A DNA stretch of 64,000 nt from Candidatus Micrarchaeota archaeon (GTDB lineage: Archaea > Micrarchaeota > Micrarchaeia > Micrarchaeales > CABMGC01): the NCBI GenBank assembly GCA_021848065.1, contig JAJZNA010000009.1, forward strand, positions 3,271-67,270, read 5' to 3'. A program made the position numbers and the translations under genes. Below the pieces are notes generated by a model. That model had not been told where the DNA came from. It worked only from the letters and a program-made list of their open reading frames with translations, and searched no databases. Positions 13,866 to 64,000 of this stretch are shown piece by piece; within the stretch, counting starts at the first letter, position 1, and each line of letters starts with the position of its first letter.

Positions 13866-13874
13866 CCGATGTTC

Positions 13875-29915: not shown

Positions 29916-29961
29916 GTTAACTACAAACTCAATATCACAATTGAATATTAAGTGTGGTGGA

Positions 29962-32900: not shown

Positions 32901-33009
32901 TGCAGAGGGCACGAACAGGATACTGGTCGCAGGATACTCTGCAAACCAGACCGTTCAGGCAGGCAACCAGTTCATACAGCAGTTGCTGCAGGCCGCAGGA
33001 GTAGCGTAA
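29962..33009 (+). CDS. Putative S-layer / major surface glycoprotein
   Basis: Signal peptide MKTINAKRIAAVAASLLMGLAFAG. 1,015 aa rich in T/S/N/G/V with dozens of NxS/T sequons and no TM anchor. Strong hairpin plus oligo-T terminator downstream. Start set at ATG 29962. Confidence 0.6.
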   Translation: MKTINAKRIAAVAASLLMGLAFAGTGVTWNNIPIINNQGQPVVQVVVGSAAQPSDGVVAANIAAVLGNLAFTSVNVTASVSQSSLSKVNCVVTTPQCTLTNQQVWFNAKGFSAPSGSYAFTALIGSVFNGAVNLGSPQNTKTLQSSTTYTYPGAFANNQPGLQMSPVASPYSGSVTPPAPQTVTASSNGGGLSSSGFGGTGFRLSGNDNLLQVTSSQLPSLLTNWGSYGESTTLWFTGIPVFDQSTSPAVNNFAVFDVGGAYQAMFNKPIQWRTGSNSINNAAINFMGANWTILNYKLPGASAWNHYTTQVLASPATASGNAMLGGAISLASTLTPVQTVYVGHNITSGGFTVSLTDLGQPNSNGTSQASVNVFYNGTLTNTTQLAPGVTTKFTVGTHNIYVKVNQTFAGLYAYQKWAKFQLYSNVMNVTDNTALNQSNANGWTARLWWTNTTNGAGSMPNALSGIVVYNTSPNNNPLLPGQTFKIATPNMTNYQLNFVGSTLGTNFDPVTFTTGTTTTSYQNLGSNPATTGLGNIANLTQQPSPTLTVSSGSVTGAFTYAGQVSSQLYYNLVPYKLNEVANGITANTMLATGAAHDSAVTTDNVLLSATNGDANVVTPSNPLTVTVVGYTTSTQAGGVSNTLASNSITFYALPGGSNSVGLGELLYNVTNIYFSRPVPLLDANVITYTAAVGTPAVNTLATLVPANPELMYYSQSGQSNYRLTSGSSVNYNQQNGQPIEYFNLTPATPGVTGTSKPYFTYKVTEYPVPAITSTNDILELGIYNSSTGISASPYFQLNTSVAGTKNNATYVSSQGNSVNAPQGFMTERGSKVASISPTSVTLDLAKAVDTLQFVVSPTMGYNASTSSTTTSVGPVGIGQAVPGVANLTVSAVNATCAFTATSCNVTGLGNLTATPSQTQAVTPVYLHTDTTPLVVLDSQANPAATLIVVGSKYVNSVAGQVFAQNPSLNSSFGPSSVVVSAEGTNRILVAGYSANQTVQAGNQFIQQLLQAAGVA

Positions 33010-33178: not shown

Positions 33179-35287
33179 ATGCAACGATTAACCTATGTCC
33201 TCGTATTTCTTGCCATCCTTTCAGCTTCAGTAGGCGCAGATTACACATCTCTTTTTGCACAGACAAACATCGCACCAAATGCAAACGCCCTACTCCAAGA
33301 ATACAACGTATCCAACTCGCTCATTTCCAGCATGACTTATGCCAACATAAACTACAGCGGGCACTCATATCTCCTCGCCTATTCCGGGAAGACTCCAGAA
33401 TTCCTCATAAACAGCACCGGCGGTGTTTACAGCATAATACTAAACTCAACCAACATCGCAGCAATAATAAATAATCACATAATAAACACGAGCCTTTACA
33501 GCATTAACACCACATACCTTGAAAGCTCCATGAACTCGTACAACCAGTCATCGTCGTCTGCGCTTACTGCATGCATAGAGGAGACTGGGCTGGACAGGGC
33601 AACCTGTACATTTGCCAACAACTGTGAGTCATGCACCCAGGTTCCTGCATGTGGAGGGGCTCCGCGCAAGAATTTCCAGTCTGCATTCTATGCGACAGGG
33701 GGCATATATGGCATCCTGGCATATGGGATAATGCTTCTGCAGTCTCAATACGCCAGCCTTGAATCAAACTTCTCAATATACTTCTCCGGAGTGAATTCAC
33801 TTAAGGGCGGAAATCCGCAAGGCCTTAACTCAGTAGTATCTGGATTTGGCAACGTCTCAAACATCACCTCTACAATATACCAGAACCCCCTATTCCCGCC
33901 CCTGCAGACTGCAGATTTTGGCCTGTGCTCTTCCGGAGGTGCAGGAACATCTAACGTTCCATCCGCGAACGGACCTTGGTACTGTTCATCTCTCGGATTC
34001 TGCCCATCCCTCTCATACAATTACACGCTCCTTGGGAACATGCAATCATACATATCGAGCGTAAGTTCGCTTCCGCTGACAAGCCAGCAGGTTGGCCAGA
34101 TAGCTGTCAACATAACCACAAATGAGGACGTGTATGTGCTTCCTGTCCTGACCAAGGAGAAGCACGCCCAGGCGCTCGCCATAGCCAATTCCGTGCTCCC
34201 TGATTACAACATGACAACTGCCGGAGCTGCCCTGCTTCTCTCGCACATATCAAACTCCATGCTGCAGAACCAGCTTTCAGCGTTGCAGTCAAACTATACC
34301 AAGCTTACTAGGAATTACGTAGTGTACAACCTATCCAGCCTCAACAAGTCCCTTGCAATACAGTACTCGCAGTTCAAGACTACCTATTACAACCTCAATT
34401 CAACATACTCCACTGCAGTATCCCTCGCTGCCAACAATACTGTTGCACTTGTAGAGCTCCAGTCAGGCAATCCAAGCCCTTCACAGCAGCTTACAGCACT
34501 CAGCTTCAGGCAGGCAAGCCTAAATTACATACTCGGATCCAAGACGAACAACATAAGCTCTGTCTACAATCAGCTTGTATCGGTAAGCCAGAGCGCCAAG
34601 TCTCTTTCGTTCACGCCAAGCCTTACGCAGTCGGGGGCAAGGCTCCTGGGCGCGCCTATCGCTTCTGCCATAGTCTCTGCAATGGGCCTGCCGTACTCTA
34701 CGGCACTCGCATACATGCCCGCCCTCTCCCTAGTGCCTGCAATAATAGTAGCAATAGTGGTCCTTGTGGCGCTATTCATGCTTCACAGGTCAATGATATC
34801 AAATAAGCGCATAATGCTCAACAGGAGGACCAGGAGGAACTGGCACATCGTGTTCATACTGGCAGGAGTTGTTGCTCTGATATTCCTGGCGGCCACGTAT
34901 GCGACAGCATCGGCAGCGAATGGGGAGGCGCCCATATCCTCATTCATAGCCGCAGTGCATTCATCCAAAAGTGTAGTGATAGCTCTCAACGGCACCAACA
35001 ACACCGCAATGATTTCGTGCGCAAACAGCGTAAAATCCTCGCTCAAAGCAATGAACAAGACTGCCACTGTAATAACCATGCGCGGAATATCATGCAACAA
35101 TGGATACCCTCTTGAGACTGTTGACAAGTGCATGGCCAGGTACGCCTCCAACAGCACCCCGGTAATAATATTCACAAACACGCCTACGATCTCGGTGTCT
35201 GCATACTCGTACTACGGCAGTGTTCTGAGCGTGAGCGGCGACCAGCAGTTCATGTCAACCTGCATTCCATCCATAATGATAAGGTGA
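33179..35287 (+). CDS. Membrane-anchored glycoprotein (signal peptide, Cys cluster, coiled-coil-like region, two TM helices, C-terminal ectodomain)
   Basis: Signal MQRLTYVLVFLAILSASVGA. Heptad-like LQNQLSALQSNYTKLTRNY region. TMs PAIIVAIVVLVALFML and HIVFILAGVVALIFLAA are separated by an RRTRRN loop. Confidence 0.6.
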   Translation: MQRLTYVLVFLAILSASVGADYTSLFAQTNIAPNANALLQEYNVSNSLISSMTYANINYSGHSYLLAYSGKTPEFLINSTGGVYSIILNSTNIAAIINNHIINTSLYSINTTYLESSMNSYNQSSSSALTACIEETGLDRATCTFANNCESCTQVPACGGAPRKNFQSAFYATGGIYGILAYGIMLLQSQYASLESNFSIYFSGVNSLKGGNPQGLNSVVSGFGNVSNITSTIYQNPLFPPLQTADFGLCSSGGAGTSNVPSANGPWYCSSLGFCPSLSYNYTLLGNMQSYISSVSSLPLTSQQVGQIAVNITTNEDVYVLPVLTKEKHAQALAIANSVLPDYNMTTAGAALLLSHISNSMLQNQLSALQSNYTKLTRNYVVYNLSSLNKSLAIQYSQFKTTYYNLNSTYSTAVSLAANNTVALVELQSGNPSPSQQLTALSFRQASLNYILGSKTNNISSVYNQLVSVSQSAKSLSFTPSLTQSGARLLGAPIASAIVSAMGLPYSTALAYMPALSLVPAIIVAIVVLVALFMLHRSMISNKRIMLNRRTRRNWHIVFILAGVVALIFLAATYATASAANGEAPISSFIAAVHSSKSVVIALNGTNNTAMISCANSVKSSLKAMNKTATVITMRGISCNNGYPLETVDKCMARYASNSTPVIIFTNTPTISVSAYSYYGSVLSVSGDQQFMSTCIPSIMIR

Positions 35288-43986: not shown

Positions 43987-44097
43987 CCTACAGATCTGAA
44001 ACATTTGACGACGGCATTGCTTTTTCATCAAAGTTTTTTGAGACGTCTGCCCCTAGTTAAGAACAAGATTTTCTGCGTACTAAAAGCTAAGAACCCA

Positions 44098-44135
44098 ACA
44101 AGATTTATATTGATTTATATGGAACATAATTTGGG
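44098..44135 (+). repeat. Copy 1 of the identical 38-nt upstream block (TATA-containing)
   Basis: acaagatttatattgatttatatggaacataatttggg ends 8 nt before ATG 44144 and is identical to 46299-46336. Confidence 0.85.
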
Positions 44136-44143
44136 TATGTGTA

Positions 44144-44647
44144 ATGTATAGTGTTAATAAGAAAGGTTTTGGTTGGAAATTAATCTTAGGATTTTTAGCA
44201 GTAGCAGTTTTACTATTAATATACTTATTTATTCAGGTATTTAATTATTTTGAACCACATACTGCTACCATACAACTAAACTGTATATCAAATACACCCC
44301 CATATCAATGTCCTGCCTTAGTCTATGATCACACTACTGGAAATATAACTGTACAGTTAGAACAGTCAACAGGAACAAATTGGACTTCCACAAGCATATT
44401 CTTCATACCGCAAGGAACTCCAACTATTGATGGTACTCCTGTTACTATTATGAGAAATGGCTCTGGTAGTGTAGTTGCAGGCGGACTTAATAATAACCAA
44501 TTTATTTCGATCACCTTAGCTGTTTCTTCTCCTGCAGTTACTGCAATAGGCACATCTGCAATTGGAGAAATATGGGCCAAATATACGACTTCAAATGGAG
44601 GTCCTTATTATTCTGAACTTGCAAAAGTAAATGTAAAGGCAACATAA
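44144..44647 (+). CDS. Small signal-anchored beta-rich protein, cassette partner A1
   Basis: N-terminal KKG + TM (WKLILGFLAVAVLLLIYLF). Paralogous to the 46339 gene (shared ...TGN(I/L)T..., IWAKYTTSNGGPYY). Confidence 0.65.
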   Translation: MYSVNKKGFGWKLILGFLAVAVLLLIYLFIQVFNYFEPHTATIQLNCISNTPPYQCPALVYDHTTGNITVQLEQSTGTNWTSTSIFFIPQGTPTIDGTPVTIMRNGSGSVVAGGLNNNQFISITLAVSSPAVTAIGTSAIGEIWAKYTTSNGGPYYSELAKVNVKAT

Positions 44648-44666
44648 CTATCTTGTTGGTTATCAA

Positions 44667-45674
44667 ATGAAATCTCTATTCATTTTTACCTTATATCTGT
44701 TCTTTATTTCATTGATAGCTTCTACCATGATATACGGCAATCATACCATCATAATTCAAAATGCTTCTTGGGCGGGATGGTCTATATACAACTCAAATCA
44801 GCCCAATTCGTACACTATAAATTCTATAAATGGTTCGTGGATTGTTGAAAAAGTGTTACCTAGTAACGAATTGGGTTGGGGGATGCAGTGGATTGGTATT
44901 GGCGGCTTGGGTAATTCAGACTTACTCCAGATAGGTACCGTATCCAATTGGGATTGCGAATTGGTGCTGTCTAAACCCATGTGCTATCCCAAATACCGTG
45001 CATTTTGGGAAACTACTAATAATGCCATTATAACTTCTGAACAACCTATTAGTATCTCAGTACACCCTGAAGATAAAATATACGCTTCAATAAATTCTAT
45101 TAGCAGTACTCACTGCCTCCTAGGGGCACCATGCTGGGAGTTATATCTTAAAGACTTAAATGGTAGCCAAATTTCTACATATTACGTAACTTACACGCCT
45201 AACCGAACTTCAGCAAATTGGGAGGAAGAAAGTATTGGTCCTTTAAGTGGCTCTACCTACCCATTCCCACTATCAAAATTCTGGGCTGCAGATTTTGGTC
45301 CTAAATATACGGATATGCCGAATACTAATTACGCAAATGTAAATATAACAACTAACAAGCCAGTTGGGTGGTATTCAAATTTAGTTGAAACCTACATTTC
45401 TAGAAACTTTGCAGGAACTGCCCATCCTTCTAATGTTACTATCAGTTCAGATAATTCTAGTTTCATAGTCTACGAAGGCCCGCAGCTTGAAATGGTTGGA
45501 GGCCTCAATGTTTCAAGGTCAATGCTGGATCTGGGCCAGGAGGCTGCCATTAATGGTCCTCACGCAGAAGGAGGTTCGGGCAATTACACATACCAATGGA
45601 TCGGGAGCTGCGTGGCGGGGGCATGGGGTTTTTATTATTTATCTATGTATAATATGTTATACTTTAATACTTGA
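44667..45674 (+). CDS. Peptidase G1 (eqolisin)-like secreted protein, apparently 3'-truncated paralogue of the giant gene
   Basis: Signal peptide, then G1-like blocks SWAGWS, INGSWIV, QWIGIGG, LLQIGT, ANWEEES, AADFGP. Collinear with the first ~320 aa of the 46891 protein; similarity ends just after GGSGNYTYQWI, inside the first Ig-like repeat. Confidence 0.6.
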   Translation: MKSLFIFTLYLFFISLIASTMIYGNHTIIIQNASWAGWSIYNSNQPNSYTINSINGSWIVEKVLPSNELGWGMQWIGIGGLGNSDLLQIGTVSNWDCELVLSKPMCYPKYRAFWETTNNAIITSEQPISISVHPEDKIYASINSISSTHCLLGAPCWELYLKDLNGSQISTYYVTYTPNRTSANWEEESIGPLSGSTYPFPLSKFWAADFGPKYTDMPNTNYANVNITTNKPVGWYSNLVETYISRNFAGTAHPSNVTISSDNSSFIVYEGPQLEMVGGLNVSRSMLDLGQEAAINGPHAEGGSGNYTYQWIGSCVAGAWGFYYLSMYNMLYFNT

Positions 45675-45690
45675 GATTTGGTAGATTGAA

Positions 45691-45993
45691 ATGGTCGGTA
45701 CACAAAAAGGGGGGCAGGTTACCCCCTCTAAGACCCACAATTTAGCTATTGGGATAGCAATTGGACTTTTAGTATATGTTATATCCTTGGCCAGTGCATC
45801 GCGTTTTATGTTTTGCACCCGTGTAATGCTGTGTTATTTTGGGACATTATTTTTTGCATTAATTTTACCAATAATATTAATATTTCTCTCTAGTGCAATT
45901 TTGTCAAGATATTATAGGTATGCCTTTTCCAAAATAGTCTTAGTTGCCCTTTTATTGTGGTTGGTGTTAAACGCATTATCTTTTCATACATAA
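45691..45993 (+). CDS. Small polytopic membrane protein (3 TM), unknown function
   Basis: 100-aa ORF with three hydrophobic helices. No homology recognised. Confidence 0.35.
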   Translation: MVGTQKGGQVTPSKTHNLAIGIAIGLLVYVISLASASRFMFCTRVMLCYFGTLFFALILPIILIFLSSAILSRYYRYAFSKIVLVALLLWLVLNALSFHT

Positions 45994-46078
45994 CTGATGC
46001 TTATATCAAAACTAACGGTAATTATATGCATAAAAACAAAAGAAAAACCGTGTTTTATTACTCTTAATAGCACAAATA

Positions 46079-46298
46079 TATGTCATACCAAATGTTTATG
46101 CACTAACTATCTCGGGTTCAATGAATAGTAGCACTTGGGCAGGCTATTTGGCATCTGCCTCTGGATATTTTCCCGGTGCTTCAACTCCGCCATCAGTTAC
46201 CGCTATAAATGGTTCGTGGATTGTTGAAAATGCAATAACCACTAACGAAACCACTACGGGGCGCAATGGATAGGTCTACAAAACCTTCTTCAAGGCCC
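46079..46298 (+). pseudogene. Remnant of a third G1-like gene N-terminus (frameshifted/deleted)
   Basis: Translates as ...MNSSTWAGYLASASGYF...VTAINGSWIVENAI...GRNG*, then continues in the +1 frame as GAQWIGLQNLLQG. It shares ataaatggttcgtggattgttgaaaa with 44825-44850 and runs straight into promoter-repeat copy 2. Confidence 0.6.
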
Positions 46299-46336
46299 AC
46301 AAGATTTATATTGATTTATATGGAACATAATTTGGG
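46299..46336 (+). repeat. Copy 2 of the identical 38-nt upstream block
   Basis: Identical to 44098-44135. Ends 2 nt before ATG 46339. Confidence 0.85.
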
Positions 46337-46338
46337 GT

Positions 46339-46839
46339 ATGGGTATGTCCAGTATTGATAAGAAAGGTTCTTGGTGGAAATGGGTAGTTGGTTTTATAGT
46401 AATAATTATACTGTCAGCAGTATTTTTATCAGGTATATGGCTCCCATTTCAAGGTACACCTCTAAGCACAAGATGCATCACACAACAAAACTATACTTGT
46501 TCTGAGGTCGTTTATAGCCACAGTACTGGTAATTTAACACTAATTATAGGGCAGTCAACTAGATATAACTGGACCTCTGTTAGTATATATTTTGTACCGT
46601 TTGGTACGGCTAATGTTGGTGGTATACCTAGCACAATACTTGATGGTATTGCTTCAGGTAATGTTATAATGCAAGGTCTAGCAAGCGGATCTACCTCCTC
46701 TATTACATTGAGGATATCCTCCCCTTCAGTTACACAAAAGGGCACAGTAGCAAATGGATCTATATGGGCCAAATACACCACTTCAAATGGTGGGCCATAT
46801 TATGCTCAAATGGCTCTGCTAAAAACAAGTGCAACATGA
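46339..46839 (+). CDS. Small signal-anchored beta-rich protein, cassette partner A2
   Basis: Paralogue of the 44144 gene: KKG + TM, Cys pair, TGNLT, SIWAKYTTSNGGPYY. Confidence 0.65.
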   Translation: MGMSSIDKKGSWWKWVVGFIVIIILSAVFLSGIWLPFQGTPLSTRCITQQNYTCSEVVYSHSTGNLTLIIGQSTRYNWTSVSIYFVPFGTANVGGIPSTILDGIASGNVIMQGLASGSTSSITLRISSPSVTQKGTVANGSIWAKYTTSNGGPYYAQMALLKTSAT

Positions 46840-46890
46840 TGTGATTCAATAGTTTACTATACCTCTTTACATAGCATTTATTCAAAGCCT

Positions 46891-49800
46891 TTGCTTATCT
46901 TTTCTTTTGCAATGTGTATAATCTCCATAGCATTCGCCACACAAAACATTCAACCCGAGTTTGGTCCTTGGGCCGGGTGGTCAATATCTGCCAGTGCTAA
47001 TGGCAACTCCAATCTTTATACTGTCAATGCAATAAACGGTTCATGGGTTGTGCAGAATACCATTCCAACAGGAATAACTGATGGTTTCGGATCTCAATGG
47101 ATTGGAATAGGTGGTGTGAGTTCAACACCCCTAATCCAAATAGGTACTGTGTCTGATTGGGTAGTTACCTGTACTAATATCACTTGCTCCGGACACACAT
47201 TATACGCACCATTTGCAGAAACAGTTGGTTTAGGTGGTGTGATACCATTTATCTACACTATGCTGATGTCTATAAGTCCTGGAGACAAGATGCAGTCATC
47301 GATAAATTTAGTAAATGGTTCTTACTGTTTAATGGGTTCCCCCTGCTGGAAGTTATATCTCAACGACACAAATAAAAGTAAAAACAGTAGGCCTTGGATA
47401 ACATACATAACATTTGCTCCTAACCGGACTTCTGCTGATTGGGAAGAAGAAAGTTTGCAACCGTTTACTATGTCTTTACCACTATCAAATTTCAAGGTAG
47501 CATACTTTGGACCCCATTTTACAAAAATACCTAATACAAATCAAGCCAACATAAACTACTCGACAAATGTATCTATTGGTGGATACAATTATCTATTAAG
47601 AAACATATTTTCTGAGGGAGGAGCTGGGTTTGCAAACGCGTCAAACCTCTATTCAGATAATTCCAGTTTCATAGTCTACGAAGGCCCACAGCTGCAACTA
47701 AACGGAAATATAAATGCATCGTCTACTCTGCTCAATTTCGGACAAAATTCTACCCTCATCGGGTTAAATGCAACAGGCGGTTCTGGAAACTACACCTATA
47801 CTTGGATTGAACAGAAGTACGTGAATGCAAATACTTCAGTTACAACAAACGTAAATTGCTATAAAGGACCTTCAGATAACCAAATGCATTATATATTCTC
47901 TCCAGGGTGCGGGGTTACCCCAGGTATCTATCTCTTCACGCTTGAAGTAACTGATAACCGCACTGAAGTAACCCAGAAATCTAATACCGTAAGCATAACT
48001 GTAAATCCCAATCCTTCAGTCAGCCTTCCAACAAACATATCTTTGTACATACCTATACGTATAACCAACTCCCAGAACTCTCCAACTTCTGCACCATTTG
48101 ACCAGGCCGTTACTGTTGATAGCGCGGAATTCTCACGCTATGAGAATGCTAACCTTAGCAATATACGGTTCTTCTATAAAAATGGCACTATTGTACCTTC
48201 GTGGCTGGAAGGGAGTTACAAGAGCAGTTTCAGCAACGCATCTACGCGCACGTTATACTGGCTTAAACTCCAGAATGGGATAGGCGCAGGCCAGACTATA
48301 TATGTGTACATGGGATTTGGGCCTACTGGATCAATGATGTTCAATTCGAATAACACTGGTGCTGACCCGTATGGGTTTTCCAGCTCATATCCAATCTACT
48401 CATACGATGACGGCTCAAAAATATTTCCATTCTACGATAATTTTGCTGGAAATACGCTCGACAGTAATTGGACTGCTATAAATGGTTCAGGGAAAGAAAC
48501 AAGGCAAGGCTATTATGTTGATAATGGGCTCTACCAAAATCAAAGCTCAGGCGCAGAAGTATCCATATATACTGGAAACATGTTCCATTATGGGCAAATT
48601 GTTGACTTTGGGGGTTCTATCCCTTCTAGATACGCTCTACCTTCTGGCCCACCATACTACTGTGGCGTGGGTGAAGGTACAAACAAGGAAGGCTTCTTCA
48701 ATGCAGCTAATGCATTTTCAGATAATGTCTTGACAAATGGCCAAGCAATACTTATGGGCTACGGTGTTCAAGAACAGTCTTCATTAGGCTGTAGCGGCGG
48801 CGGATACGATGGCAAATGGCTATACGATAGTGAACTAGCATCCAATAATCTCTTCGAAGCCCCTAGTGCGTCATCAATACTCTTCGGATCAAATAACGAA
48901 ACAGGTATATCCTCCAATGCAACTGCATATCTTGGCAGTTATAATCTGAATTATGCTTTCCAGACCGCAAATGTAGCTATAATTAATTCTGCCGAAGGTG
49001 AACTTCTAGGACTCCAGATGGTAAACCTGGCTAGCGGATACCTTCATTGGGTTCGTATAAGAAACTCGCCTCCAGATGGCATAATGCCAAATGTGACTAT
49101 AGCCTCAATACCTACTAATCTGTCATTTTCTAATCCGATAACCCTGCAAGGATACCCTGACACACTTACCGCGCATGTGCCTTTCAATGATCCTGTAACA
49201 CTCACTATAGGGGACCCTATAGCTAGCATAAATGGCACAGGCAGTGTCAATTACACCATATGCTCTACAAAATCTACATGCTTGCCTGCTGGTACCTATA
49301 CTGTAACCGTTAATGACACAAAACAGTCTGTTGTAGAAAATTGGACTCTTGTGATAGAGGCGCCCCCAAATGTAATTGCCACACCTTCCAAATCAACGCT
49401 TGATCAGGGCCAGCAGATATACCTAAGCGCAAACATATCTAATGGGACCGGACAATATGATTATCAATGGTATAACCTTACTTTAGGGAACAGCACTGCA
49501 ATTACGGGTCAAACTGGAAAGCTGTTTCTATTCAATGCTATGAAAACAGGCACATTCAAATATTATGTAATAGCAAATGACATTGGAACCAACGAAACTT
49601 ATTCAGCAAAATCCAATAACGTTACTGTTACTATATATCCTATGCTATCTGTAAATATAACTCCCGCATTCAGAGCCATGTCGCCTGGTGGAAATGATAA
49701 TATCCTCATGCATTCTATTGTTAATGGTGGCACTGGGAATTTCACATACCAGTGGTATAATTTCAGCTCCGGAATATTCCCCGTCCCTATGCCTGCTCTA

Positions 49801-52800
49801 ACTTCAAATGAAACTTCAGTGGTGTTCAATTCCCTTGGTGATTATTCTTACCTTCTAATAGTTACTGATGAAGGTACAACAACCTCACCCAAAGCATCTA
49901 CAATATCATATCCTAACAACATCTCAGTAACTTATCCTATCATAAAGTTATTTCCTAAAAATGACACAATATTCAATAATCAATCTATTACTTTTACAAA
50001 TCTAACACTTCCAAACGACACCGTCTATACCTTTTCGTATAACATATCGCAATACGGAAAATCCGCTTCAACTTCAAACTATCTGGTATCTGGAAATTCG
50101 ATACGATTCTTCAATATAAACTCGCAGCATCCTCAAATTTTTAATGTATCAGAAACTGCTATGGACAGTTCAGGACATATCGGGTTATCGTCTAACAGCA
50201 CGATAACCGTCAACCCCCCATATTTCTGGTCGCCTCCAAATAAAATAACAGCGTACATAAATCTCACAATATACAATGGCCAGAACTACTCCATAGCCGC
50301 CAATACACAAATACCCATATATCTAAATGTTGTAAAATACAATGCATATGCTGCTAATAATTTGGTTAACTTCGAAGTGTTCAACGGATTTGACGAAGAA
50401 ATAGTTCCATCCTGGATTGAGAACCAGACATCAAATAGTATAGCCTCAAATGGAAACGCTTTGATATGGGTAAAACTGCCATATGCAATAGCTGCAAAAT
50501 CAAGTTCTGTAAATGCAATATCTATGGGATTTGCAAATATGTCTACATCCCTTTTAAATCACAATAATGATGGCATAGCTCCAGAGCTATATTGTTTGGA
50601 AGGGGGAACAGTATGCCCTCAGACTAGCTACGGCGAATACGATGACGGTGCTTCTGTATTCAATTTTTATAGTAACTTTTCAGGTTCACAACTAAACGAC
50701 CAATGGACAAATCCATATGGGTCATCACTGACAGTGGATAATGGATTAACGCTAGCCCCTGCAACTAGCACTGGTTGTAGTAATAATGGCGGTGAACTTC
50801 AATCTGCCAATTCTTTCTATCTACCAGGCAATACTGTAGACTATTACGGTATACTACGTGGGGGAAGTGGCGCACCATGGTCTTCTGCAGGCATGGGTGT
50901 ATTTTCATCTCCAAATACTTGTGGAGGCACTAGTCAAGGCGATATTGACTGGGGTGCGAGCGAACGGTATTACAGAGCCAATCCAACAAGTTCCGACGCC
51001 AACATAAACTTCCTTTCAGAAATTACTGTATGGTCGATAGGTAGTAATCCTTCAGGATATGTATTATATTATTCACAAGGCTATCATAATACGCAATCAC
51101 AGCCAACTTCAAGTAATTTATCTAATGGGAATGTGGTAATTTATCAGCAAGTCAATTCTGGAGGATCTGCAAATGCAACTTGGGTCAGGATAAGAAAATC
51201 GCTTCCTAACGGCATCAAGCCTGAGGTATACTTCGGCCCATTGCTATATGCCCCATTAAATAACACAAAAGTACATGTCACCATAACTCTCTCACCGACA
51301 TCGGAACTCACTGATGCAGGACAGTCAGTGACATTCTATAATACAACTACCGGCGGCACTCCACCATACGTCTTCGCATACTCCGTGTCCCAATTCGGAA
51401 CACCTGCATCAACCGGCAACTATCTCATATCAGGAAACTCCATAAAGTTCACAAATGCCGGCACGTACAACGTAATAGAAAACGTCACTGACAGCATAGG
51501 CAACATTGCACACTCATCCAACAGCACGATAACCGTAAACCTAAAAACATCTAATTCTTCAGTGTGCGACATAGTTCCTGCAGATTTTAATATTACTGCA
51601 TGTATCCCTGTTTCAATAAGCAATACGCAAAATAGTAAAATGAATATGGGAACCCAGATTGCAATCCCATTCCCTGCGAATTCGTATGAAACATATGAAG
51701 CTGCAAACATGATGAATGTATTCCTATACAATGCCAGCAGCGGCAATACTGCCCCATGCTGGCTTGAAGGCAATACCCTAAACGAGATACAGTCGCAGAA
51801 CCTTTACGCATCCGCAAATCTGCTTTACTGGTGTAAGATGCCCGATTCAATACCTGCACAGTCAACAGATACCAACTGGTACTTTGGTTTTGCCAATTCC
51901 TCTACAGATCTTTATGGCAATCCGATTGCACAACTTGGTGCTGCCCCACAACTCCACTGTGGCAGCCCGTACAACTGCCCCACATCTTCATATGCAGGCG
52001 CAGACAACGGCAATGCTGTATTCAGCTTCTACGATAATTTCTCAGGAACAACATTGAGATCCAAATGGGCAGGTAGCACTAATCCATCATATTGTACTTA
52101 TACTGTATCAAATGGGCTTGAGGTAACGGATTCCCATTCAAATGGTGGCAATATCTTCTGTCAAACCTACAGTCTGCCTTCGTTCACTCTTCCAATAATT
52201 TCGGAAGGATTGCTTGAAGGCACCACCAGTTCAACGTATACTTCGATAGGTGCAAATATGACTGCCACCTCACAGGCTAATACTAATTCATACTTGATGT
52301 GGTTCAACCCTTATCATGGCTGTGAAATCATGTCATCTGATGGGGAAATACTAGGTGATGTGTCTGGAATATCTTCGACATGCAATGAGAACGTTTGGTC
52401 AATTTATTCATTATTTGCATCTCCAAATTCCATCACCGCAACGTTGAACTATGATCTATCTGCATCTCAGAATACGAGTTCAGTGCCTGTACCCTCCCCA
52501 ACAAATATAATCACTTCTGTGGGTGAGTATCCTGGCACGGCAGTCTCAAAATACCAGTGGGTAAGGGCAAGAGTTCCACCTCCAAATAATGTCCAGCCAA
52601 CAATAAGTTATTCTTCTTTGAAGGTTGCAAATTCGCATGTATCCTTGCTATTCAGCTCAAATCCTGCAAATGCCGAATCTTCAATCAATGTGACTGCAAC
52701 CTGTGTGCCTAACACCGATACATGCGCAGTGCAATCTCCACTTGGAACAACCTTATGTTCGGGTACTGGTTCATGTGTATACCAGACATCAGCGCTGCCA

Positions 52801-54159
52801 GCAGGAAACTACACTTATTTTGCAAATGATCTCACCTTAAACCACAATGTAAAGGAAATTTTGCAGATGGTGGCATACTGCGGAAACACTCCTTCCGGAT
52901 TTAGCGTAGATACCTGCGTACCAATTAAAATAGATAACACCCAGACTAGCTCCATACTCCCGAACACCCAGATTGCAATTCCATTCCCTGCGAATTCGTA
53001 TGAAACATACGAAGCCGCAAACATGATGAATATATTCCTATACAACGCCAGCAGCGGCAAGACTGCTCCCTGCTGGCTTGAAGGAAATACCCTCAACGAG
53101 ATGCAGTCACAGAACCTTTACACGTCTGCAAACCTATTGTACTGGTGCAGGATTCCTGACTCAATACCTGCACAGTCAACAGATACCAACTGGTACTTTG
53201 GCCTTGCACCTTCCTCAACAGATCTTTATGGCAACTCCATTGCGCAACTCGGTGCCGCCCCACAGCTCTACTGTGGCAGCCCGTACAACTGTCCTGCATC
53301 ATCATACGCTGGCGCAGACAATGGCAATGCAGTATTCAACTTCTATGATAACTTCTCAGGGACCGTTCTAGGCTCCAAATGGTATGCCCGTGCAGGCACT
53401 GCGACTGTAAACAACAGCGTGACATTCACCATGGGCAGCCAGGACAGCTGGCTGTCATCCACAATTCCTATAAATGGCCTGACAAATGATACGGACTTCC
53501 TAGGATCAATTGCAGGAACTACCTCAGGATATGATGCGCAATGGGTCTGCTATAGCGAAGGAAGTGCATCTACCGACGGCTGCACAAGTTACGGATTTAA
53601 GATAGGAGGCAGCAGCGGCGCAGGAAGCGATCTTCTTTCATGTAGCGGCAGCCTATGTGAAACATACGGCACCATCTCGTCAGTGGCCACTCCTACTGCA
53701 ATATCCCTATTCTCAATATGGTCTGCAGGAGGGATGGCGTATGTCTCTGATAATTATGGCATCATAAGTTCCGTTAACAACTCGCAGTATCTCACATCCA
53801 ATATTGATTTTGGAGGATCTTCGACATTCACCTCGGGCATGAAGTACTTCCTATATTATGTAAGATCGAGGACGCAGCCGCCTAACAACGTGCAGCCGTC
53901 AATAAGTTATGGCACTTCAGGAAGCCTCAATGGGACCAAGGCTGCGGTTGCGGGAAGCACTGCACCATACCTAGGCAACGCGTATACTGTTTCAGGCCAA
54001 TCAACGCAGCTAACCGCGACCAATTCTTTGTCCGGAGGTGGCATGATAACAAGTTCCACTTCAACGGGTGGCTTTACTTCGATTAGCACGGTCACTACTG
54101 TGGCTCCTTCTAACAATGTGGGGACGGTGCAGAAATCGCACCATAAATCTTCAAAATAA
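46891..54159 (+). CDS. Giant secreted multidomain protein: peptidase G1-like domain + 4 x (DUF2341-like + LamG/ConA-like) modules + Ig/PKD-like repeats
   Basis: Uninterrupted 2,422-codon ORF (TTG 46891 or ATG 46912) with a hydrophobic N-terminus. G1 blocks PWAGWS, INGSWVV, QWIGIGG, LIQIGT, ADWEEES. DUF2341-like starts lie near 48040, 50245, 51590 and 52905. Each module ends in [WY]VR[IAS]R..PP[DN][GN]..P. Ig-like repeats carry G-G-[ST]-G-x-[YF]-x-Y-x-W. The C-terminal tail is S/T/G-rich and there is no TM anchor. Confidence 0.7.
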   Translation: MLIFSFAMCIISIAFATQNIQPEFGPWAGWSISASANGNSNLYTVNAINGSWVVQNTIPTGITDGFGSQWIGIGGVSSTPLIQIGTVSDWVVTCTNITCSGHTLYAPFAETVGLGGVIPFIYTMLMSISPGDKMQSSINLVNGSYCLMGSPCWKLYLNDTNKSKNSRPWITYITFAPNRTSADWEEESLQPFTMSLPLSNFKVAYFGPHFTKIPNTNQANINYSTNVSIGGYNYLLRNIFSEGGAGFANASNLYSDNSSFIVYEGPQLQLNGNINASSTLLNFGQNSTLIGLNATGGSGNYTYTWIEQKYVNANTSVTTNVNCYKGPSDNQMHYIFSPGCGVTPGIYLFTLEVTDNRTEVTQKSNTVSITVNPNPSVSLPTNISLYIPIRITNSQNSPTSAPFDQAVTVDSAEFSRYENANLSNIRFFYKNGTIVPSWLEGSYKSSFSNASTRTLYWLKLQNGIGAGQTIYVYMGFGPTGSMMFNSNNTGADPYGFSSSYPIYSYDDGSKIFPFYDNFAGNTLDSNWTAINGSGKETRQGYYVDNGLYQNQSSGAEVSIYTGNMFHYGQIVDFGGSIPSRYALPSGPPYYCGVGEGTNKEGFFNAANAFSDNVLTNGQAILMGYGVQEQSSLGCSGGGYDGKWLYDSELASNNLFEAPSASSILFGSNNETGISSNATAYLGSYNLNYAFQTANVAIINSAEGELLGLQMVNLASGYLHWVRIRNSPPDGIMPNVTIASIPTNLSFSNPITLQGYPDTLTAHVPFNDPVTLTIGDPIASINGTGSVNYTICSTKSTCLPAGTYTVTVNDTKQSVVENWTLVIEAPPNVIATPSKSTLDQGQQIYLSANISNGTGQYDYQWYNLTLGNSTAITGQTGKLFLFNAMKTGTFKYYVIANDIGTNETYSAKSNNVTVTIYPMLSVNITPAFRAMSPGGNDNILMHSIVNGGTGNFTYQWYNFSSGIFPVPMPALTSNETSVVFNSLGDYSYLLIVTDEGTTTSPKASTISYPNNISVTYPIIKLFPKNDTIFNNQSITFTNLTLPNDTVYTFSYNISQYGKSASTSNYLVSGNSIRFFNINSQHPQIFNVSETAMDSSGHIGLSSNSTITVNPPYFWSPPNKITAYINLTIYNGQNYSIAANTQIPIYLNVVKYNAYAANNLVNFEVFNGFDEEIVPSWIENQTSNSIASNGNALIWVKLPYAIAAKSSSVNAISMGFANMSTSLLNHNNDGIAPELYCLEGGTVCPQTSYGEYDDGASVFNFYSNFSGSQLNDQWTNPYGSSLTVDNGLTLAPATSTGCSNNGGELQSANSFYLPGNTVDYYGILRGGSGAPWSSAGMGVFSSPNTCGGTSQGDIDWGASERYYRANPTSSDANINFLSEITVWSIGSNPSGYVLYYSQGYHNTQSQPTSSNLSNGNVVIYQQVNSGGSANATWVRIRKSLPNGIKPEVYFGPLLYAPLNNTKVHVTITLSPTSELTDAGQSVTFYNTTTGGTPPYVFAYSVSQFGTPASTGNYLISGNSIKFTNAGTYNVIENVTDSIGNIAHSSNSTITVNLKTSNSSVCDIVPADFNITACIPVSISNTQNSKMNMGTQIAIPFPANSYETYEAANMMNVFLYNASSGNTAPCWLEGNTLNEIQSQNLYASANLLYWCKMPDSIPAQSTDTNWYFGFANSSTDLYGNPIAQLGAAPQLHCGSPYNCPTSSYAGADNGNAVFSFYDNFSGTTLRSKWAGSTNPSYCTYTVSNGLEVTDSHSNGGNIFCQTYSLPSFTLPIISEGLLEGTTSSTYTSIGANMTATSQANTNSYLMWFNPYHGCEIMSSDGEILGDVSGISSTCNENVWSIYSLFASPNSITATLNYDLSASQNTSSVPVPSPTNIITSVGEYPGTAVSKYQWVRARVPPPNNVQPTISYSSLKVANSHVSLLFSSNPANAESSINVTATCVPNTDTCAVQSPLGTTLCSGTGSCVYQTSALPAGNYTYFANDLTLNHNVKEILQMVAYCGNTPSGFSVDTCVPIKIDNTQTSSILPNTQIAIPFPANSYETYEAANMMNIFLYNASSGKTAPCWLEGNTLNEMQSQNLYTSANLLYWCRIPDSIPAQSTDTNWYFGLAPSSTDLYGNSIAQLGAAPQLYCGSPYNCPASSYAGADNGNAVFNFYDNFSGTVLGSKWYARAGTATVNNSVTFTMGSQDSWLSSTIPINGLTNDTDFLGSIAGTTSGYDAQWVCYSEGSASTDGCTSYGFKIGGSSGAGSDLLSCSGSLCETYGTISSVATPTAISLFSIWSAGGMAYVSDNYGIISSVNNSQYLTSNIDFGGSSTFTSGMKYFLYYVRSRTQPPNNVQPSISYGTSGSLNGTKAAVAGSTAPYLGNAYTVSGQSTQLTATNSLSGGGMITSSTSTGGFTSISTVTTVAPSNNVGTVQKSHHKSSK
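51652..52068 (+). repeat. Intragenic repeat copy A (DUF2341-like module core)
   Basis: Roughly 90% or more identical by eye to 52966-53382. The offset is exactly 1,314 nt (438 codons, in frame). Confidence 0.8.
52966..53382 (+). repeat. Intragenic repeat copy B
   Basis: See copy A. For example, cagattgcaat[c/t]ccattccctgcgaattcgtatgaaacata[t/c]gaagc[t/c]gcaaacatgatgaat. Confidence 0.8.
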
Positions 54160-54170
54160 CCGGTGTAAGA

Positions 54171-54461
54171 ATGGCCAATATCTCCAAAATAACTGAGGAA
54201 CTTGGAAGGTCTCCAACCTTGGAAAACTGGGAAAGGTTCCGCAAGGCCCTTGCATCTTCCGGAATAAAATATTATTCAATAAAGTTTCCAGAGCCTAGTC
54301 TCAAGGGACTAGAAGACCTGCGCAGCGCGTATGCAGAGCTCTACGATTCAAGGGGAAGACCCATTTTCCGAGTGCCTATAATAATGTCATCAGGGAAAGG
54401 CGTACGCGGTGCGACTTCCTACCTTAAGGGCCTGCTGAACCTGAACAGGTGGCCATCATGA
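54171..54461 (+). CDS. Hypothetical small protein
   Basis: 96-aa ORF whose 3' end overlaps the cysD start by 13 nt. No motif recognised. Confidence 0.4.
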   Translation: MANISKITEELGRSPTLENWERFRKALASSGIKYYSIKFPEPSLKGLEDLRSAYAELYDSRGRPIFRVPIIMSSGKGVRGATSYLKGLLNLNRWPS

Positions 54462-55247: not shown

Positions 55248-56450
55248 CTACCCACGGCTAAAGCCTGTGGGCTTTCCATCAAGATGATTTGAATGTTGCA
55301 CAGCAACCAACAAACCACTTTCATCGGACATCTGTCTAAGGTCGTTTACAAGACCTTCCCTATTGGAAATCTGGAAGGGTTTATGGTTAGTAGAATCCTT
55401 CCGCTCCAAAAGGCATTTCAATGCAATATTCTTGCTTGCATTTCTGTCGGAGTTCACGACAACTCCGCATTCCTTGCATTCAAAGAGGGCATAATTATTG
55501 CTACTGTGTCCCTTACCAACAGCACCGCAGTGGTTACAGAACTTGGAGGTATGCCACGAATCAACGATATTCAGCGTAATCTTCTTATCAAAACAACGAG
55601 AAGTAAGAATCTCCCGAAACTTCCTGAATGGCATCCTCATGACTTCCTTGTTGAATCTTCTGCCCTTCAGTTTGAATCTCTTGAGGTTCTCAATGGAAAT
55701 ATCTGCATTATATTCTCCTGCAAGGTCAAGAATCCCCTTAACCATCTGCCCTATATTAGTATCAACGAAGTCATATTCACGAGTCTTCAATCTTCGGAGG
55801 GCAGAGAGATTATTGAAACCCTGCATTACGGAGCGTCTTCGCATAATTCCCTTCCTCTTCATCCAGATATGCAATCCAAAGTAATCCTGATGCAGAACCT
55901 TGCCTTTATCGGAAAGGACGGAAACGGCGATGCGCTTCGCATTGAAATCAATCCCCATAACATTTCTTTTGGCAGGCAATTCAACCTCATCTTTGGAAAG
56001 ATATGCGACAATCTGGAGGTTAGGGGTCAGCCCATAGGTCTTGCACGTCCATCCACTCTTCAGAAGGTCGGAGTATCTCTGGAAGTTGCGGTTCTTGATA
56101 AAGGGTATTGCAATCCTGTTTCTCGGATATATTCCGAGTTCAATGAAGTCGAAAGATTTAGTGGAGAAGGCTTTACAGTTTCGAGGAATGTTGAACTTGA
56201 CGGTTATGCCTTTGGACTGGTTCTTGCTTCTCCAGACTGCACGTTCCAGAGAAGCATAAACTTGAACATTGAATCCTGTTCTTATTTTGGATTCGGCAAA
56301 CGTCTTCCTATGAAAATCCATGAAGGTATTGCAAAAATCCCTGTCTTCCCAGAGTTTATTGAACTCGGAAGTGGCTTTCAAAGAGAACTCTTCCAAGAAC
56401 CTTCTCTTTCTGGTAGTTGCATCAATCTGCAAAAGAACAGCACGTTTCAT
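55248..56450 (-). CDS. tnpB: TnpB (IS605 OrfB-type RNA-guided endonuclease)
   Basis: RuvC-I GIDFN, RuvC-II ISIENL, zinc finger CNHCG...CKECG, RuvC-III NSDRNASKNIA. The ATG at 56450 (MKRAVLLQ) is preferred; the ORF extends to TTG 56504. The C-terminal GKPTGFSRG is read through the end hairpin. Confidence 0.85.
   Translation of the reverse strand: MKRAVLLQIDATTRKRRFLEEFSLKATSEFNKLWEDRDFCNTFMDFHRKTFAESKIRTGFNVQVYASLERAVWRSKNQSKGITVKFNIPRNCKAFSTKSFDFIELGIYPRNRIAIPFIKNRNFQRYSDLLKSGWTCKTYGLTPNLQIVAYLSKDEVELPAKRNVMGIDFNAKRIAVSVLSDKGKVLHQDYFGLHIWMKRKGIMRRRSVMQGFNNLSALRRLKTREYDFVDTNIGQMVKGILDLAGEYNADISIENLKRFKLKGRRFNKEVMRMPFRKFREILTSRCFDKKITLNIVDSWHTSKFCNHCGAVGKGHSSNNYALFECKECGVVVNSDRNASKNIALKCLLERKDSTNHKPFQISNREGLVNDLRQMSDESGLLVAVQHSNHLDGKPTGFSRG
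55251..55271 (+). repeat. tnpB-element end hairpin (3' side of tnpB; candidate RE / omega-RNA scaffold end)
   Basis: CCCACGGC-TAAA-GCC(T)GTGGG. Confidence 0.6.
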
Positions 56451-56509
56451 CCTACTAACCAAATAAATATGGATAACGATGTATATGATGCTTATGCTCG
56501 ACAATTCCC

Positions 56510-61959: not shown

Positions 61960-64000
61960 ATGGGTAAATATAGTTTGCATCTGGGTCTCATAACCCTATT
62001 TTTATTTAGTATTTTTGCTGGACGCAGTATGGCTATCAGCTATAGAAGTATTAATAGTACAAGCACTGCAACAGTATCTGGTGGCAATATCGGTGGCACC
62101 GCTGCTCCCTATTATATATTCGTAATCTACAATAGTTCAAGCGCACAACCCATTTCAGGCGCATCCGTCATAGCAAAATTCGTTACACCTTCAGGAACAT
62201 ATGGGCCAAGCCACTGTACTACAAGTTCCGTATATTATAACCTTCCAGGGTATTCCTTTGTTACTCTTCAAGCTCCTCCTGCAGGTGATACCCCAACCGT
62301 ACCATCAACCGGCAACCCTGCTTTTTATCTGGTCTCATGTTATATTGGTTTCGGTATCAATATAGGTACAGGTACGGTATATTATTCAGTCACTGCGAAT
62401 GGCTATCACAATTCCCCAACTTACAACTTCACTGCAGATACTAACAATCCATATCCAAATCAAGAAACATTTGTACTTACCCCAATGACTTCCTTAAACT
62501 CGCCTGCAACAACTTCAACAACCAGTACGACTACTGCAACAACAACCTCCACTAGTACCACAACCATTTCGACTACGTCTACAGTTTCAACATCAACTTC
62601 AACGACTACAACAATACCTACTTCGACTACAACAGTACCACCGATCCAGTCCGCAAATATCTCTGTAACAATAAGTCCATCTACAGCACAAGTTCCTTTG
62701 ACATTAATGGCAAGTAGCTTGACAGAACACAACGCACCAATTGTAATAACTATCAGGAACACCGGTGAACTCGGGTCAAACTGGAGCCTTGCAAATTATC
62801 CAAGATATGTGTCTTTTTCACAAACTAGTGGCACAATCGAAAGAGTGTCTTCAACGAACAGAACTCCAACAATAGAGATAAGTGGAACAATAAATGCTAC
62901 AGAAATCCCAAAAAGTGACATAGGCACACCAATGAATATTAGTATTGAGGTTCTTAGCAGCGGCATTCCATCTGGGGGCGTTACAAAATATTTGCGTATT
63001 GAGGCAACCAATGTTACTTGTGGTTACGTCGGTTATTATTGCGGAAGCATAAACCAAACTTTTCTGGCAGTGGAAATGGATATGGCACTATACAAGAACA
63101 AGTCTTCGGGTCTCTATACTTTTGTATGGGGCATACACCCATACCAACACTATGGTGTAATCCTATTTAATCGATCTCAGGCATATTCAGTTGCAAATCA
63201 GGTATTAATAAGTCTAACCAACGATGGTTTTAACACAACAATAACTAATTCAACAACCTCTTCTGCTGGCATACTAACAGAAACGAATTATACCAGTTTC
63301 AGTGCTTTCTCACCTGACCAACGTCTATTTTTAAATGTAGCACAGACTGTGGTAGAAGGTTTCATTGCAGGTGCGCCTTTTTCAGATCTTCTCACCACGT
63401 CAGCCATCTCTCTGGATTCAGGCATACCTTTTCTTGGCACTACTTATGATGTTGTAACCTTTATCAAAGAACCACATTCAGTAATGAATGGAATAGCTGT
63501 GGCTTCAGATGCTGTAAATATCGGTGCACAGTTTGTTCCAGATGGCACATCTTTATATAACTCAACCTGTTTTGTCCTAGATCCGGCAGGTTGCTACAAT
63601 GGATATGTAACTGGTACCATTACACGAGCTTATGCTCGCGATTTCAGTTTTGTGAATTCCAATACCATATATGTATATCAAAATAATGAAAAAAGACACA
63701 ATGTATTATACACCCTATATCCCGACCAACAGCTGGTAATTGAACTTCATAATGTCACTTTCCCATACAATTGCACCAGTTATGATACTTGCAACACTGC
63801 CACCCCTCAAAACCCATATCCTCTTGACTTTTATCCTGTATATGTGGAAGGAAATGACGCCTGGCTTCTCACTAATTCTATAATATATAATTTCGGTGGA
63901 CTAAATGGCACTTATGTTGGGGATAAGTATGTCCCCGGCGGACCTGCATTTATCACATCTTGTGGTGGTCTACCTACAATATTGCACCCTGGTAAATTGG
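61960..64000 (+). CDS. Large secreted glycoprotein with Thr/Ser-rich linker (3' end beyond window; absent from the ORF track)
   Basis: Translated by hand from ATG 61960 with no stop through 63999 (680 codons). Signal-like MGKYSLHLGLITLFLFSIFAG, TTSTTSTTTATTTSTSTTT linker at about 62497-62640, and many NxS/T sequons. Confidence 0.65.
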   Translation, partial: MGKYSLHLGLITLFLFSIFAGRSMAISYRSINSTSTATVSGGNIGGTAAPYYIFVIYNSSSAQPISGASVIAKFVTPSGTYGPSHCTTSSVYYNLPGYSFVTLQAPPAGDTPTVPSTGNPAFYLVSCYIGFGINIGTGTVYYSVTANGYHNSPTYNFTADTNNPYPNQETFVLTPMTSLNSPATTSTTSTTTATTTSTSTTTISTTSTVSTSTSTTTTIPTSTTTVPPIQSANISVTISPSTAQVPLTLMASSLTEHNAPIVITIRNTGELGSNWSLANYPRYVSFSQTSGTIERVSSTNRTPTIEISGTINATEIPKSDIGTPMNISIEVLSSGIPSGGVTKYLRIEATNVTCGYVGYYCGSINQTFLAVEMDMALYKNKSSGLYTFVWGIHPYQHYGVILFNRSQAYSVANQVLISLTNDGFNTTITNSTTSSAGILTETNYTSFSAFSPDQRLFLNVAQTVVEGFIAGAPFSDLLTTSAISLDSGIPFLGTTYDVVTFIKEPHSVMNGIAVASDAVNIGAQFVPDGTSLYNSTCFVLDPAGCYNGYVTGTITRAYARDFSFVNSNTIYVYQNNEKRHNVLYTLYPDQQLVIELHNVTFPYNCTSYDTCNTATPQNPYPLDFYPVYVEGNDAWLLTNSIIYNFGGLNGTYVGDKYVPGGPAFITSCGGLPTILHPGKL

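Follow-up and report, generated by a model that had tools for sequence, protein, structure and literature searches.

The DNA described here is a 64,000-nucleotide stretch (hereafter the window) of contig JAJZNA010000009.1 from a Candidatus Micrarchaeota archaeon, and our subject is a giant gene on its forward strand at 46891-54159. The open reading frame (ORF) listing and translation give one intact frame of 2,422 codons from a TTG start; the database gene call (P0009) starts at the ATG at 46912 and yields 2,415 amino acids (aa). A frame of this length cannot arise by chance. A preliminary description of the DNA had reported a single unbroken 7.27-kb ORF with a hydrophobic N-terminus, no membrane anchor, and the motifs WAG, WIGIGG, LIQIG and ADWEEES. 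The ORF is exactly as described, all four motifs were located in the translation (within WAGW, QWIGIGG, LIQIG and SADWEEES), and the N-terminus is the sole segment with hydrophobicity of transmembrane strength. The protein begins with a short hydrophobic leader, probably a signal peptide, whose start codon is uncertain (46891-46938, aa 1-16, ...SIAFA followed by TQN). A domain resembling the G1 peptidases (eqolisins, Peptidase_A4) follows at 46963-47700 (aa ~25-270), on the basis of profile links, alignment and a fold match. Four large modules separated by Ig/PKD-like domains make up most of the remainder. The last ~80 aa (53917-54159) form a Ser/Thr/Gly-rich tail that ends in KSHHKSSK and has no transmembrane helix; no C-terminal membrane anchor or sorting signal was recognised in the protein. 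The protein contains 76 N-x-S/T sequons, compared to 52.9±6.2 in 2,000 shuffles, and D, E, K and R account for only 8.8% of its residues. A sequon excess and few charged residues are typical of the glycosylated extracellular proteins of acidophiles.

Three start codons were considered. With the TTG at 46891, the leader (MLIFSFAMCIISIAFA followed by TQN) is 16 aa long and has no charged residue in its n-region, and the ATG at 46912 leaves just 9 aa ahead of the mature domain. Homologues of the giant protein have leaders of 22-25 aa. An in-frame ATT at 46876, spotted by eye, would yield a canonical 21-aa leader (MYSKPLLIFSFAMCIISIAFA), and it would be the only one of the three to resemble the homologues. 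A non-canonical start codon and a short leader are also what one would see in a pseudogene with a lost start codon, and the breaks of several assemblies at the edge of the surrounding island, together with the short-read origin of all assemblies supporting the ORF, would fit a chimeric or collapsed-repeat ORF. We consider an artefact of either kind very improbable. An ENA contig is 100% identical to the window over 27 kb, including the whole giant gene, a second ENA contig is identical to the first 2.1 kb (5') of the gene, an NCBI assembly is identical to the window as far as the island edge, and an NCBI contig of 69.8 kb encodes exactly this protein. The gene has a single internal DNA repeat, 398 bp long and 87% identical, in modules 3 and 4. 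Because this lone repeat has diverged and independent assemblies carry identical sequence, repeat collapse is unlikely and was rejected. Moreover, the domain order is collinear with that of relatives from other samples, and the frame stays open over its entire 7.27 kb.

The N-terminal domain was connected to the G1 family through intermediate sequences. A phmmer search with aa 1-290 against 5.8 billion proteins returned eight matches, five of which carry the G1 family domain PF01828; the best of these links were P0005 (9e-15) and P0006 (2e-14). A mixed profile of the phmmer matches, which joins near and far members, reached the heavy chain of aspergillopepsin II (1y43_B, 1e-14) and scytalidopepsin B (1s2b_A, 1.9e-7) in the PDB. 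This profile was split into A2 (subfamily only) and A6 (PF01828-type proteins). A6 reached the same two PDB entries (1y43_B, 1.6e-17; 1s2b_A, 1.3e-11), and hhalign aligned A2 with A6 over 217 columns with a probability of 100% and an E value of 4.4e-42. The AlphaFold2 model of the domain has a mean predicted local distance difference test (pLDDT) score of 56.8, a predicted template modelling (pTM) score of 0.63 and a core at pLDDT 65-87. Foldseek searches of the PDB with this low-confidence model placed scytalidoglutamic peptidase (SGP) at ranks 1-3 (2ifw, 2ifr and 1s2b; E values of 4e-6 to 6e-5, probability 1.0, TMt ~0.5), followed by neprosin, another glutamic-class peptidase; 1y43_B and galectins were also on the list. 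The G1 assignment in the preliminary description is thus upheld by transitive profile links and by the top fold matches, and not by a direct match to PF01828 or to a PDB sequence. These sequence and model data support placing the N-terminal domain in the G1 eqolisin family as a divergent member, with a homology that is transitive but strong.

The preliminary description had also singled out a Gln and a Glu as the putative catalytic dyad, and both align with that of SGP. In the HMMER alignment, Q53 of SGP (ILQTG) corresponds to Q83 (LIQIG, codon 47137-47139) and E136 (IIED) pairs with E187, the last of the three Glu in SADWEEES (codon 47449-47451). Q83 and E187 are invariant in six members of the giant-protein subfamily, which are ~50% identical overall. 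In a comparison with 162 aligned homologues, the giant protein retains G8, G41, G44, Q53, G55, F67, E69 and E136; position 67 is W or F across the G1 family. From the published hallmark list, which also gives the roles of D43 and P72 (PMC6154417), six of the eight positions (G8, G41, G44, G55, W/F67 and E69) are kept, and D43 and P72 are both replaced by Gly. The D43 replacement is shared with 145 of the 162 prokaryotic homologues. Residue 68 is altered, and extra Cys pairs specific to the subfamily are present. Judged from its sequence, the domain belongs to the G1 family, keeps its dyad intact and has a remodelled 70s loop, and it is likely to be active.

Alternatively, the G1-like domain could be catalytically dead and act as an extra concanavalin A (ConA)-like binding domain at the tip of an adhesive fibre. 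The G1 fold lies within the ConA-like superfamily, and galectins appear in the Foldseek list. Loss of P72, the remodelled 70s loop, the changed residue 68, the missing propeptide and the position of the domain beneath Pfam detection would all suit a degenerate peptidase. However, invariance of both dyad residues among members only ~50% identical, together with retention of four hallmark glycines and E69, is not the pattern expected after loss of catalysis. We therefore regard a pseudo-peptidase as improbable.

The rest of the protein alternates between modules and Ig/PKD-like spacers, all on the forward strand. The first Ig/PKD-like domain (47713-48024, aa ~275-378) contains GGSGNYTYTW and has sub-threshold matches to SprB and K319L-like_PKD. 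Module 1 (48028-49110, aa 380-740) is followed by about four Ig/PKD-like domains (49111-50241, aa 741-1117), the region richest in sequons, with NGTGQYDYQW at aa 851 and GGTGNFTYQW at aa 946. Module 2 (50242-51240, aa 1118-1450) and module 3 (51583-52620, aa 1565-1910; the copy that was modelled) are separated by an Ig-like spacer (51241-51582, aa 1451-1564), and a second such spacer (52621-52896, aa 1911-2002) leads to module 4 (52897-53916, aa 2003-2342), whose 5' 398 bp are those 87% identical to module 3. Regular-expression scans found the module start motif at aa 387, 1124, 1572 and 2010, the end motif [WY]VR[IAS]R..PP at aa 720, 1431, 1890 and 2323, and the spacer motif GG(S/T)GN(Y/F)TY.W at aa 296 and 946. 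The four modules are mutually homologous over their full ~340-360 aa (28-52% identity, E values of 2e-16 to 1e-106). DUF2341 (PF10102) matches the whole protein in three stretches, its score of 48.7 bits (E = 1.1e-12) exceeding the cutoff of 23.4, and internal homology identifies the fourth copy; the four DUF2341-type modules claimed earlier are therefore all present. The motifs of the putative Ig/PKD repeats in the preliminary description are present, and the Pfam matches of these repeats in this protein are all sub-threshold (Ig_7, 21 bits; Ig_3, 21; K319L-like_PKD, 16; SprB, 17). In the relative P0063, K319L-like_PKD scores 28.2 bits over the whole protein against a gathering score of 27 bits, with no single stretch passing alone.

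The model of module 3 (pLDDT 70.6, pTM 0.77) is confident in the DUF2341 part (pLDDT 84-96) and weaker in the second half (50-66). Its Foldseek matches in the PDB were lichenases and laminarinases of glycoside hydrolase family 16 (GH16), Emp47p, concanavalin A and legume lectins (probability 1.0, TMt 0.5-0.66). The Laminin_G_3 profile (PF13385) has no match in the giant protein, the module profiles A3 and A4 had none in the PDB, and the relatives P0019-P0021 bear PF13385 alongside PF10102. Thus, the LamG-like character proposed earlier holds at the level of a ConA-like/LamG jelly-roll fold, within the confidence of the second half of the model, and not at the level of the PF13385 profile. The module 3 model and the homology of the modules support that each consists of DUF2341 followed by a ConA-like/LamG jelly roll.

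We aligned 19 module copies from the giant protein and its relatives. Conservation is confined to the DUF2341 part, the junction (G..APQL...Y..D.G..VF.FY.NF.G......W) and the closing strand (W.R.R..PPNGV.P). Loops of the jelly roll show no conservation among these copies, and the jelly-roll half has no conserved acidic residues. The GH16 catalytic motif (ExDxxE or ExDxE) occurs nowhere in the giant protein, and the modules were therefore rejected as GH16 enzymes. They were also rejected as degenerate G1 domains, as the G1 hidden Markov model (HMM) has no match to them. Because the scaffold is conserved, the loops are not and the GH16 motif is missing, the modules may be diversified binding surfaces on a fixed scaffold and not enzymes. 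The labels "lectin" and "surface-exposed", given in the preliminary description, would be plausible readings of such a sequence.

The same order of a G1 head, PKD and DUF2341/ConA-like modules was found by BLAST and HMM scans in at least eight metagenomic relatives, including P0010 (1,943 aa), P0012, P0013, P0014, P0063, P0113 and P0137. In P0113, Pfam itself detects both PF01828 (5.7e-17) and PF10102 (29 bits). Other long relatives combine a G1 domain, mostly N-terminal, with Kelch/beta-propeller arrays or fn3, and some have two G1 domains. The sole locus that came from a profile scan of genome contigs, on a contig (L002) of a Micrarchaeota metagenome-assembled genome, carries an ORF of 1,516 aa or more in which the G1 domain spans aa 140-390. 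A search with the G1 profile among 1.84 billion cluster representatives matched 9,942, mostly of 250-400 aa, and 16 of the best 150 matches were at least 985 aa long. A family usually called rare and single-domain thus has ~10,000 metagenomic cluster representatives here; proteins of ~1,000 aa or more make up about one-tenth of the best 150 matches, and the long ones scanned pair G1 with DUF2341, Kelch/beta-propeller or fn3. The fusion, which the preliminary description did not recognise as a described architecture, is therefore not unique, and giants joining a protease to LamG domains have been published. In a literature search, no paper turned up that links G1 or eqolisin peptidases to Micrarchaeota, and a paper on DPANN archaea of acid mine drainage mentions neither peptidases nor adhesins (PMC12153355).

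A second conserved gene accompanies the giant gene. It lies 51 bp upstream (46339-46839, +) and encodes a 166-aa protein with one N-terminal transmembrane helix and an external domain of ~125 aa that contains two invariant Cys residues. A paralogous copy of 167 aa (44144-44647, +) is 47% identical to it. Homologous partner genes (162-208 aa) stand directly upstream of the G1-like gene in all six cassettes examined, two in the window and one each in L003, L004, L005 and L013, with gaps of -4 to +52 bp. In the alignment, the partners share 25-50% identity with the window copy, and the family HMM detects the one of L013 at E = 1e-55. The partner gene is missing beside a single-domain G1 gene (L012). 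Searches of Pfam, NCBIfam and the PDB with the partner protein gave no match. A conserved class III signal motif ([KR]-G/A before the helix) was not found; Gly at -1 occurs in three of the six partners and is missing in L004 and L013. A type IV pilin was rejected as the identity of the partner, as the cleavage motif is not conserved and the annotated ~16-64 kb of the window showed no pilus genes nearby.

The paralogous partner, in a cassette 2 kb upstream, precedes a shorter G1-like gene (P0001; 44667-45674, +; 335 aa), which is 43% identical to the giant protein and keeps the Gln and the catalytic Glu. P0001 stops just past the first PKD motif (GGSGNYTYQW) and looks like a truncated giant gene. 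Neither the conserved upstream partner nor this truncated paralog was mentioned in the preliminary description. A third G1-like N-terminus persists as a remnant at 46034-46270 (+), a 79-aa open segment matching the G1 profile at E = 6e-11. The unrelated contig L013 repeats this layout of a partner, a G1 remnant (2939-3196, E = 7e-23), a partner and a giant gene. Two small ORFs without a Pfam match were also seen: one in the island (45691-45993, +), encoding a 100-aa hydrophobic protein, and one directly 3' of the giant gene (54171-54461, +; 96 aa).

These cassettes bear on a further role for the G1 domain, namely that it cuts its own polypeptide or the partner at low pH and thereby frees or activates the adhesive modules. 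A generic processing role would be compatible with the occurrence of G1 at the head of many different giants (DUF2341, Kelch/beta-propeller arrays, fn3), and fungal G1 zymogens, whose preprosegments are described in PMC6154417, self-activate at acid pH. On the other hand, neither a conserved cleavage site nor a propeptide was identified in the giant protein, and the truncated 335-aa paralog retains the dyad yet has nothing to process. Maturation in cis is, in our judgement, quite improbable.

The giant gene sits between guaA and a phosphoadenosine phosphosulfate reductase-like gene, in a region (window 44000-52000) with a G+C fraction of 0.37-0.42 compared to ~0.50 in the flanks. About 1 kb downstream, an insertion sequence (IS) element gene of the TnpB/Cas12f1-like_TNB type (55248-56504, -) flanks the island. 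The L003 cassette is also IS-flanked (6540-7400 and 13844-14350), with a DDE_Tnp_1 gene, in a different genomic context. Several public assemblies of the same population stop right after guaA, at the island edge, which points to strain heterogeneity in the island. Comparison with P0010, the giant protein of L003, revealed two regions of unequal divergence: identity is 84% over the C-terminal 960 aa and just 37% over the N-terminal ~1,000 aa. At the DNA level, window 51652-54246, which takes in the last 2.6 kb (3') of the gene and 87 bp past its stop codon, is 92% identical to L003 11325-13919. The first 4.7 kb (5') has diverged strongly (37% identity between the proteins). In P0002, a head of the P0010 type is followed by a tail of the P0001 type. 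From this identity contrast and the head-to-tail joining in P0002, the distal half of the protein is mosaic and fast-evolving and the proximal half conserved. By sequence, then, the low-GC, IS-flanked stretch is a mosaic island with a recombining gene.

The mosaicism raises the idea of a two-component host-contact system diversified by cassettes, with the partner as a dedicated dock, or as a trans-acting inhibitor or immunity factor, for the G1 head, and with the truncated cassettes and G1 remnants as silent donors. Recombination at conserved junctions, FIVYEGPQ and GGSGNYTY among them, would then shuffle the distal half, which faces the host, in the manner of antigenic or phase variation. We consider this idea improbable. 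If it were true, a DPANN symbiont would have a way to keep pace with changing host envelopes.

Several neighbouring and related genes help to place the locus. For the threonyl-tRNA synthetase encoded nearby, a single marker protein, the best named matches (72-73% identity) are all from Micrarchaeota or Micrarchaeaceae, and the related loci hold the archaeal genes PriX, PolD, TopoVI and thermopsin. The thermopsin (A5 acid protease) gene lies at L004 15163-16638 (-), 3 kb from the P0012 giant gene, and these genomes therefore contain at least two classes of acid protease. Elsewhere in the window, a 1,022-aa S-layer gene (29941-33009, +; PF05124, S_layer_C) is followed by a gene for a 702-aa protein without a Pfam match (33179-35287, +). 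A large gene of low G+C, after a YNCE-type beta-propeller gene, begins at 62029 and runs off the window (62029-64000, +). In a public contig that extends further, it encodes 1,495 aa. Pfam matches nothing in the first 657 of these, and the product may be a further surface protein.

We propose, with about even confidence, that the giant protein is a secreted, glycosylated protease-adhesin for contact with a host or matrix at low pH, held at the surface through its partner. It would lie outside the Ca. Micrarchaeota (DPANN) cell, carry many N-linked glycans and be stable in acid. Its distal N-terminal domain would be a propeptide-free G1 glutamic endopeptidase, catalytically competent at low pH through the Gln83/Glu187 dyad. 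The four DUF2341 and ConA-like modules, with Ig/PKD spacers between them, would form a stalk with a conserved scaffold and hypervariable jelly-roll loops, and the modules would be ligand-binding units, probably for glycans, and not glycosidases. The anchorless giant would probably be held or regulated at the surface by the single-pass membrane protein encoded upstream. Together, the pair may bind a glycosylated surface, either the envelope of a Thermoplasmatales host or a biofilm matrix, and cleave proteins there.

Several findings weigh against this proposal. We know of no ligand for DUF2341/ConA-like modules. The ambiguity of the start codon makes the signal peptide uncertain. Single-sequence searches with the N-terminal domain gave no G1 match in Pfam (even at E<=10), in NCBIfam or by phmmer against the PDB, the subfamily-only profile A2 reached no G1 entry in the PDB, and the structural model is poor (mean pLDDT 56.8, TMt ~0.5). 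The Gly at position 72 replaces a Pro found in 148 of the 162 homologues, and a published in-silico analysis holds that substitutions of P72 may be disabling (PMC6154417). The 70s loop, which binds the substrate, has expanded in the giant-protein subfamily and varies among its members. There is no propeptide, WAGW starting ~10 residues past the predicted leader; other prokaryotic G1 members have extensions of ~100 aa. Co-variation between the partner and G1 sequences is weak (rho = 0.50, P = 0.06), with pairs that are non-independent and span a narrow range of identity. Finally, the annotation, which covers ~16-64 kb of the window, showed no gene of a type IV pilus, be it for a pilus ATPase, TadC or a prepilin peptidase.

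The lack of a membrane anchor or sorting signal would also suit a free nutritional protease that is shed into the acidic biofilm, where modules resembling carbohydrate-binding modules hold the G1 domain on glycoprotein or extracellular polymeric substances and peptides are scavenged with no specific host. Those G1 enzymes that have been characterised are secreted and serve digestion or invasion, and what the prokaryotic ones do in vivo is not known (PMC3009609). The abundance of G1 in metagenomes as small secreted proteins, as counted above, agrees with a nutritional use. We nevertheless hold this to be rather unlikely, since in every cassette examined the gene comes with one for a membrane-anchored partner, and since a mosaic, hypervariable distal half, a conserved proximal half and an island location are more typical of cell-cell contact proteins. 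In addition, the lineage of the organism consists of host-dependent episymbionts (PMC5498576).

If the giant protein is a protease-adhesin, the family would pair acid proteolysis that can be assayed, through the Gln/Glu dyad, with binding modules and a linked membrane partner, and would make symbiont-host surface remodelling testable. To our knowledge, activity has yet to be demonstrated for any host-contact protein of Micrarchaeota, and little is known of how DPANN archaea attach to their hosts and exploit them. Acid-stable, propeptide-free G1 domains may also be of biotechnological interest.

The giant protein can be compared to four known systems. With the G1 eqolisins (SGP, 1S2B/2IFW; aspergilloglutamic peptidase, 1Y43; bacterial pepG1; PF01828) it shares a homologous beta-sandwich, the Gln/Glu dyad, the conserved glycines, E69, an aromatic residue at 67 and an occurrence in acidophiles. 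Unlike them, it has no propeptide, has lost P72, has an expanded 70s loop and extra Cys pairs, and gives no direct PF01828 match. The described G1 enzymes are mature single domains of ~200 aa, whereas the G1 domain here is fused to ~2,100 more residues. G1 enzymes are active in acid, and single-domain archaeal homologues have been listed from Acidilobus, Caldivirga and Picrophilus (PMC3009609).

The second comparison is within the phylum. In Ca. Mancarchaeum acidiphilum Mia14, LamG-like proteins are expanded on genomic islands, and a role in host interaction, namely contact with the Thermoplasmatales host, was proposed (Golyshina et al. 2017, PMC5498576). The LamG-like/PKD/beta-propeller giants of Mia14, likened here by description, come from the same type of acidic habitat and are likewise jelly-roll proteins on islands. 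The Mia14 paper mentions neither a protease domain nor a dedicated small membrane partner, and our locus has both.

DUF2341 proteins (PF10102/MJ1470-like, arCOG03508) are encoded at archaeal type IV pilus (Epd) loci and have been compared with PilY1 adhesins (PMC4858521, PMC10133366); they were proposed to be pilus-associated adhesins (PMC4858521). Like them, the giant is a large, putatively secreted archaeal protein with a proposed adhesive role. Unlike the Epd loci, the annotated part of the window lacks the genes for pilus ATPase, TadC and prepilin peptidase, and the partner has no conserved class III motif.

The SPEARE proteins of Nanohaloarchaeota are giants with protease and laminin-G domains, are variable extracellularly, were detected by proteomics and were proposed to act in host attachment (PMC6642349). 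Both they and our protein are DPANN giants uniting a protease region with adhesion-type domains. However, SPEARE proteins have a serine protease, a C-terminal transmembrane anchor and a cytoplasmic restriction-endonuclease domain, whereas the protein described here has a G1 glutamic peptidase, DUF2341 modules, no transmembrane anchor and no nuclease. The resemblance is an analogy of design and not homology. Because the Mia14, DUF2341-adhesin and SPEARE ideas have been published, the overall design is already known; what differs here is the set of components, with a G1 protease, DUF2341 arrays, a separate membrane partner and neither a transmembrane nor a nuclease domain.

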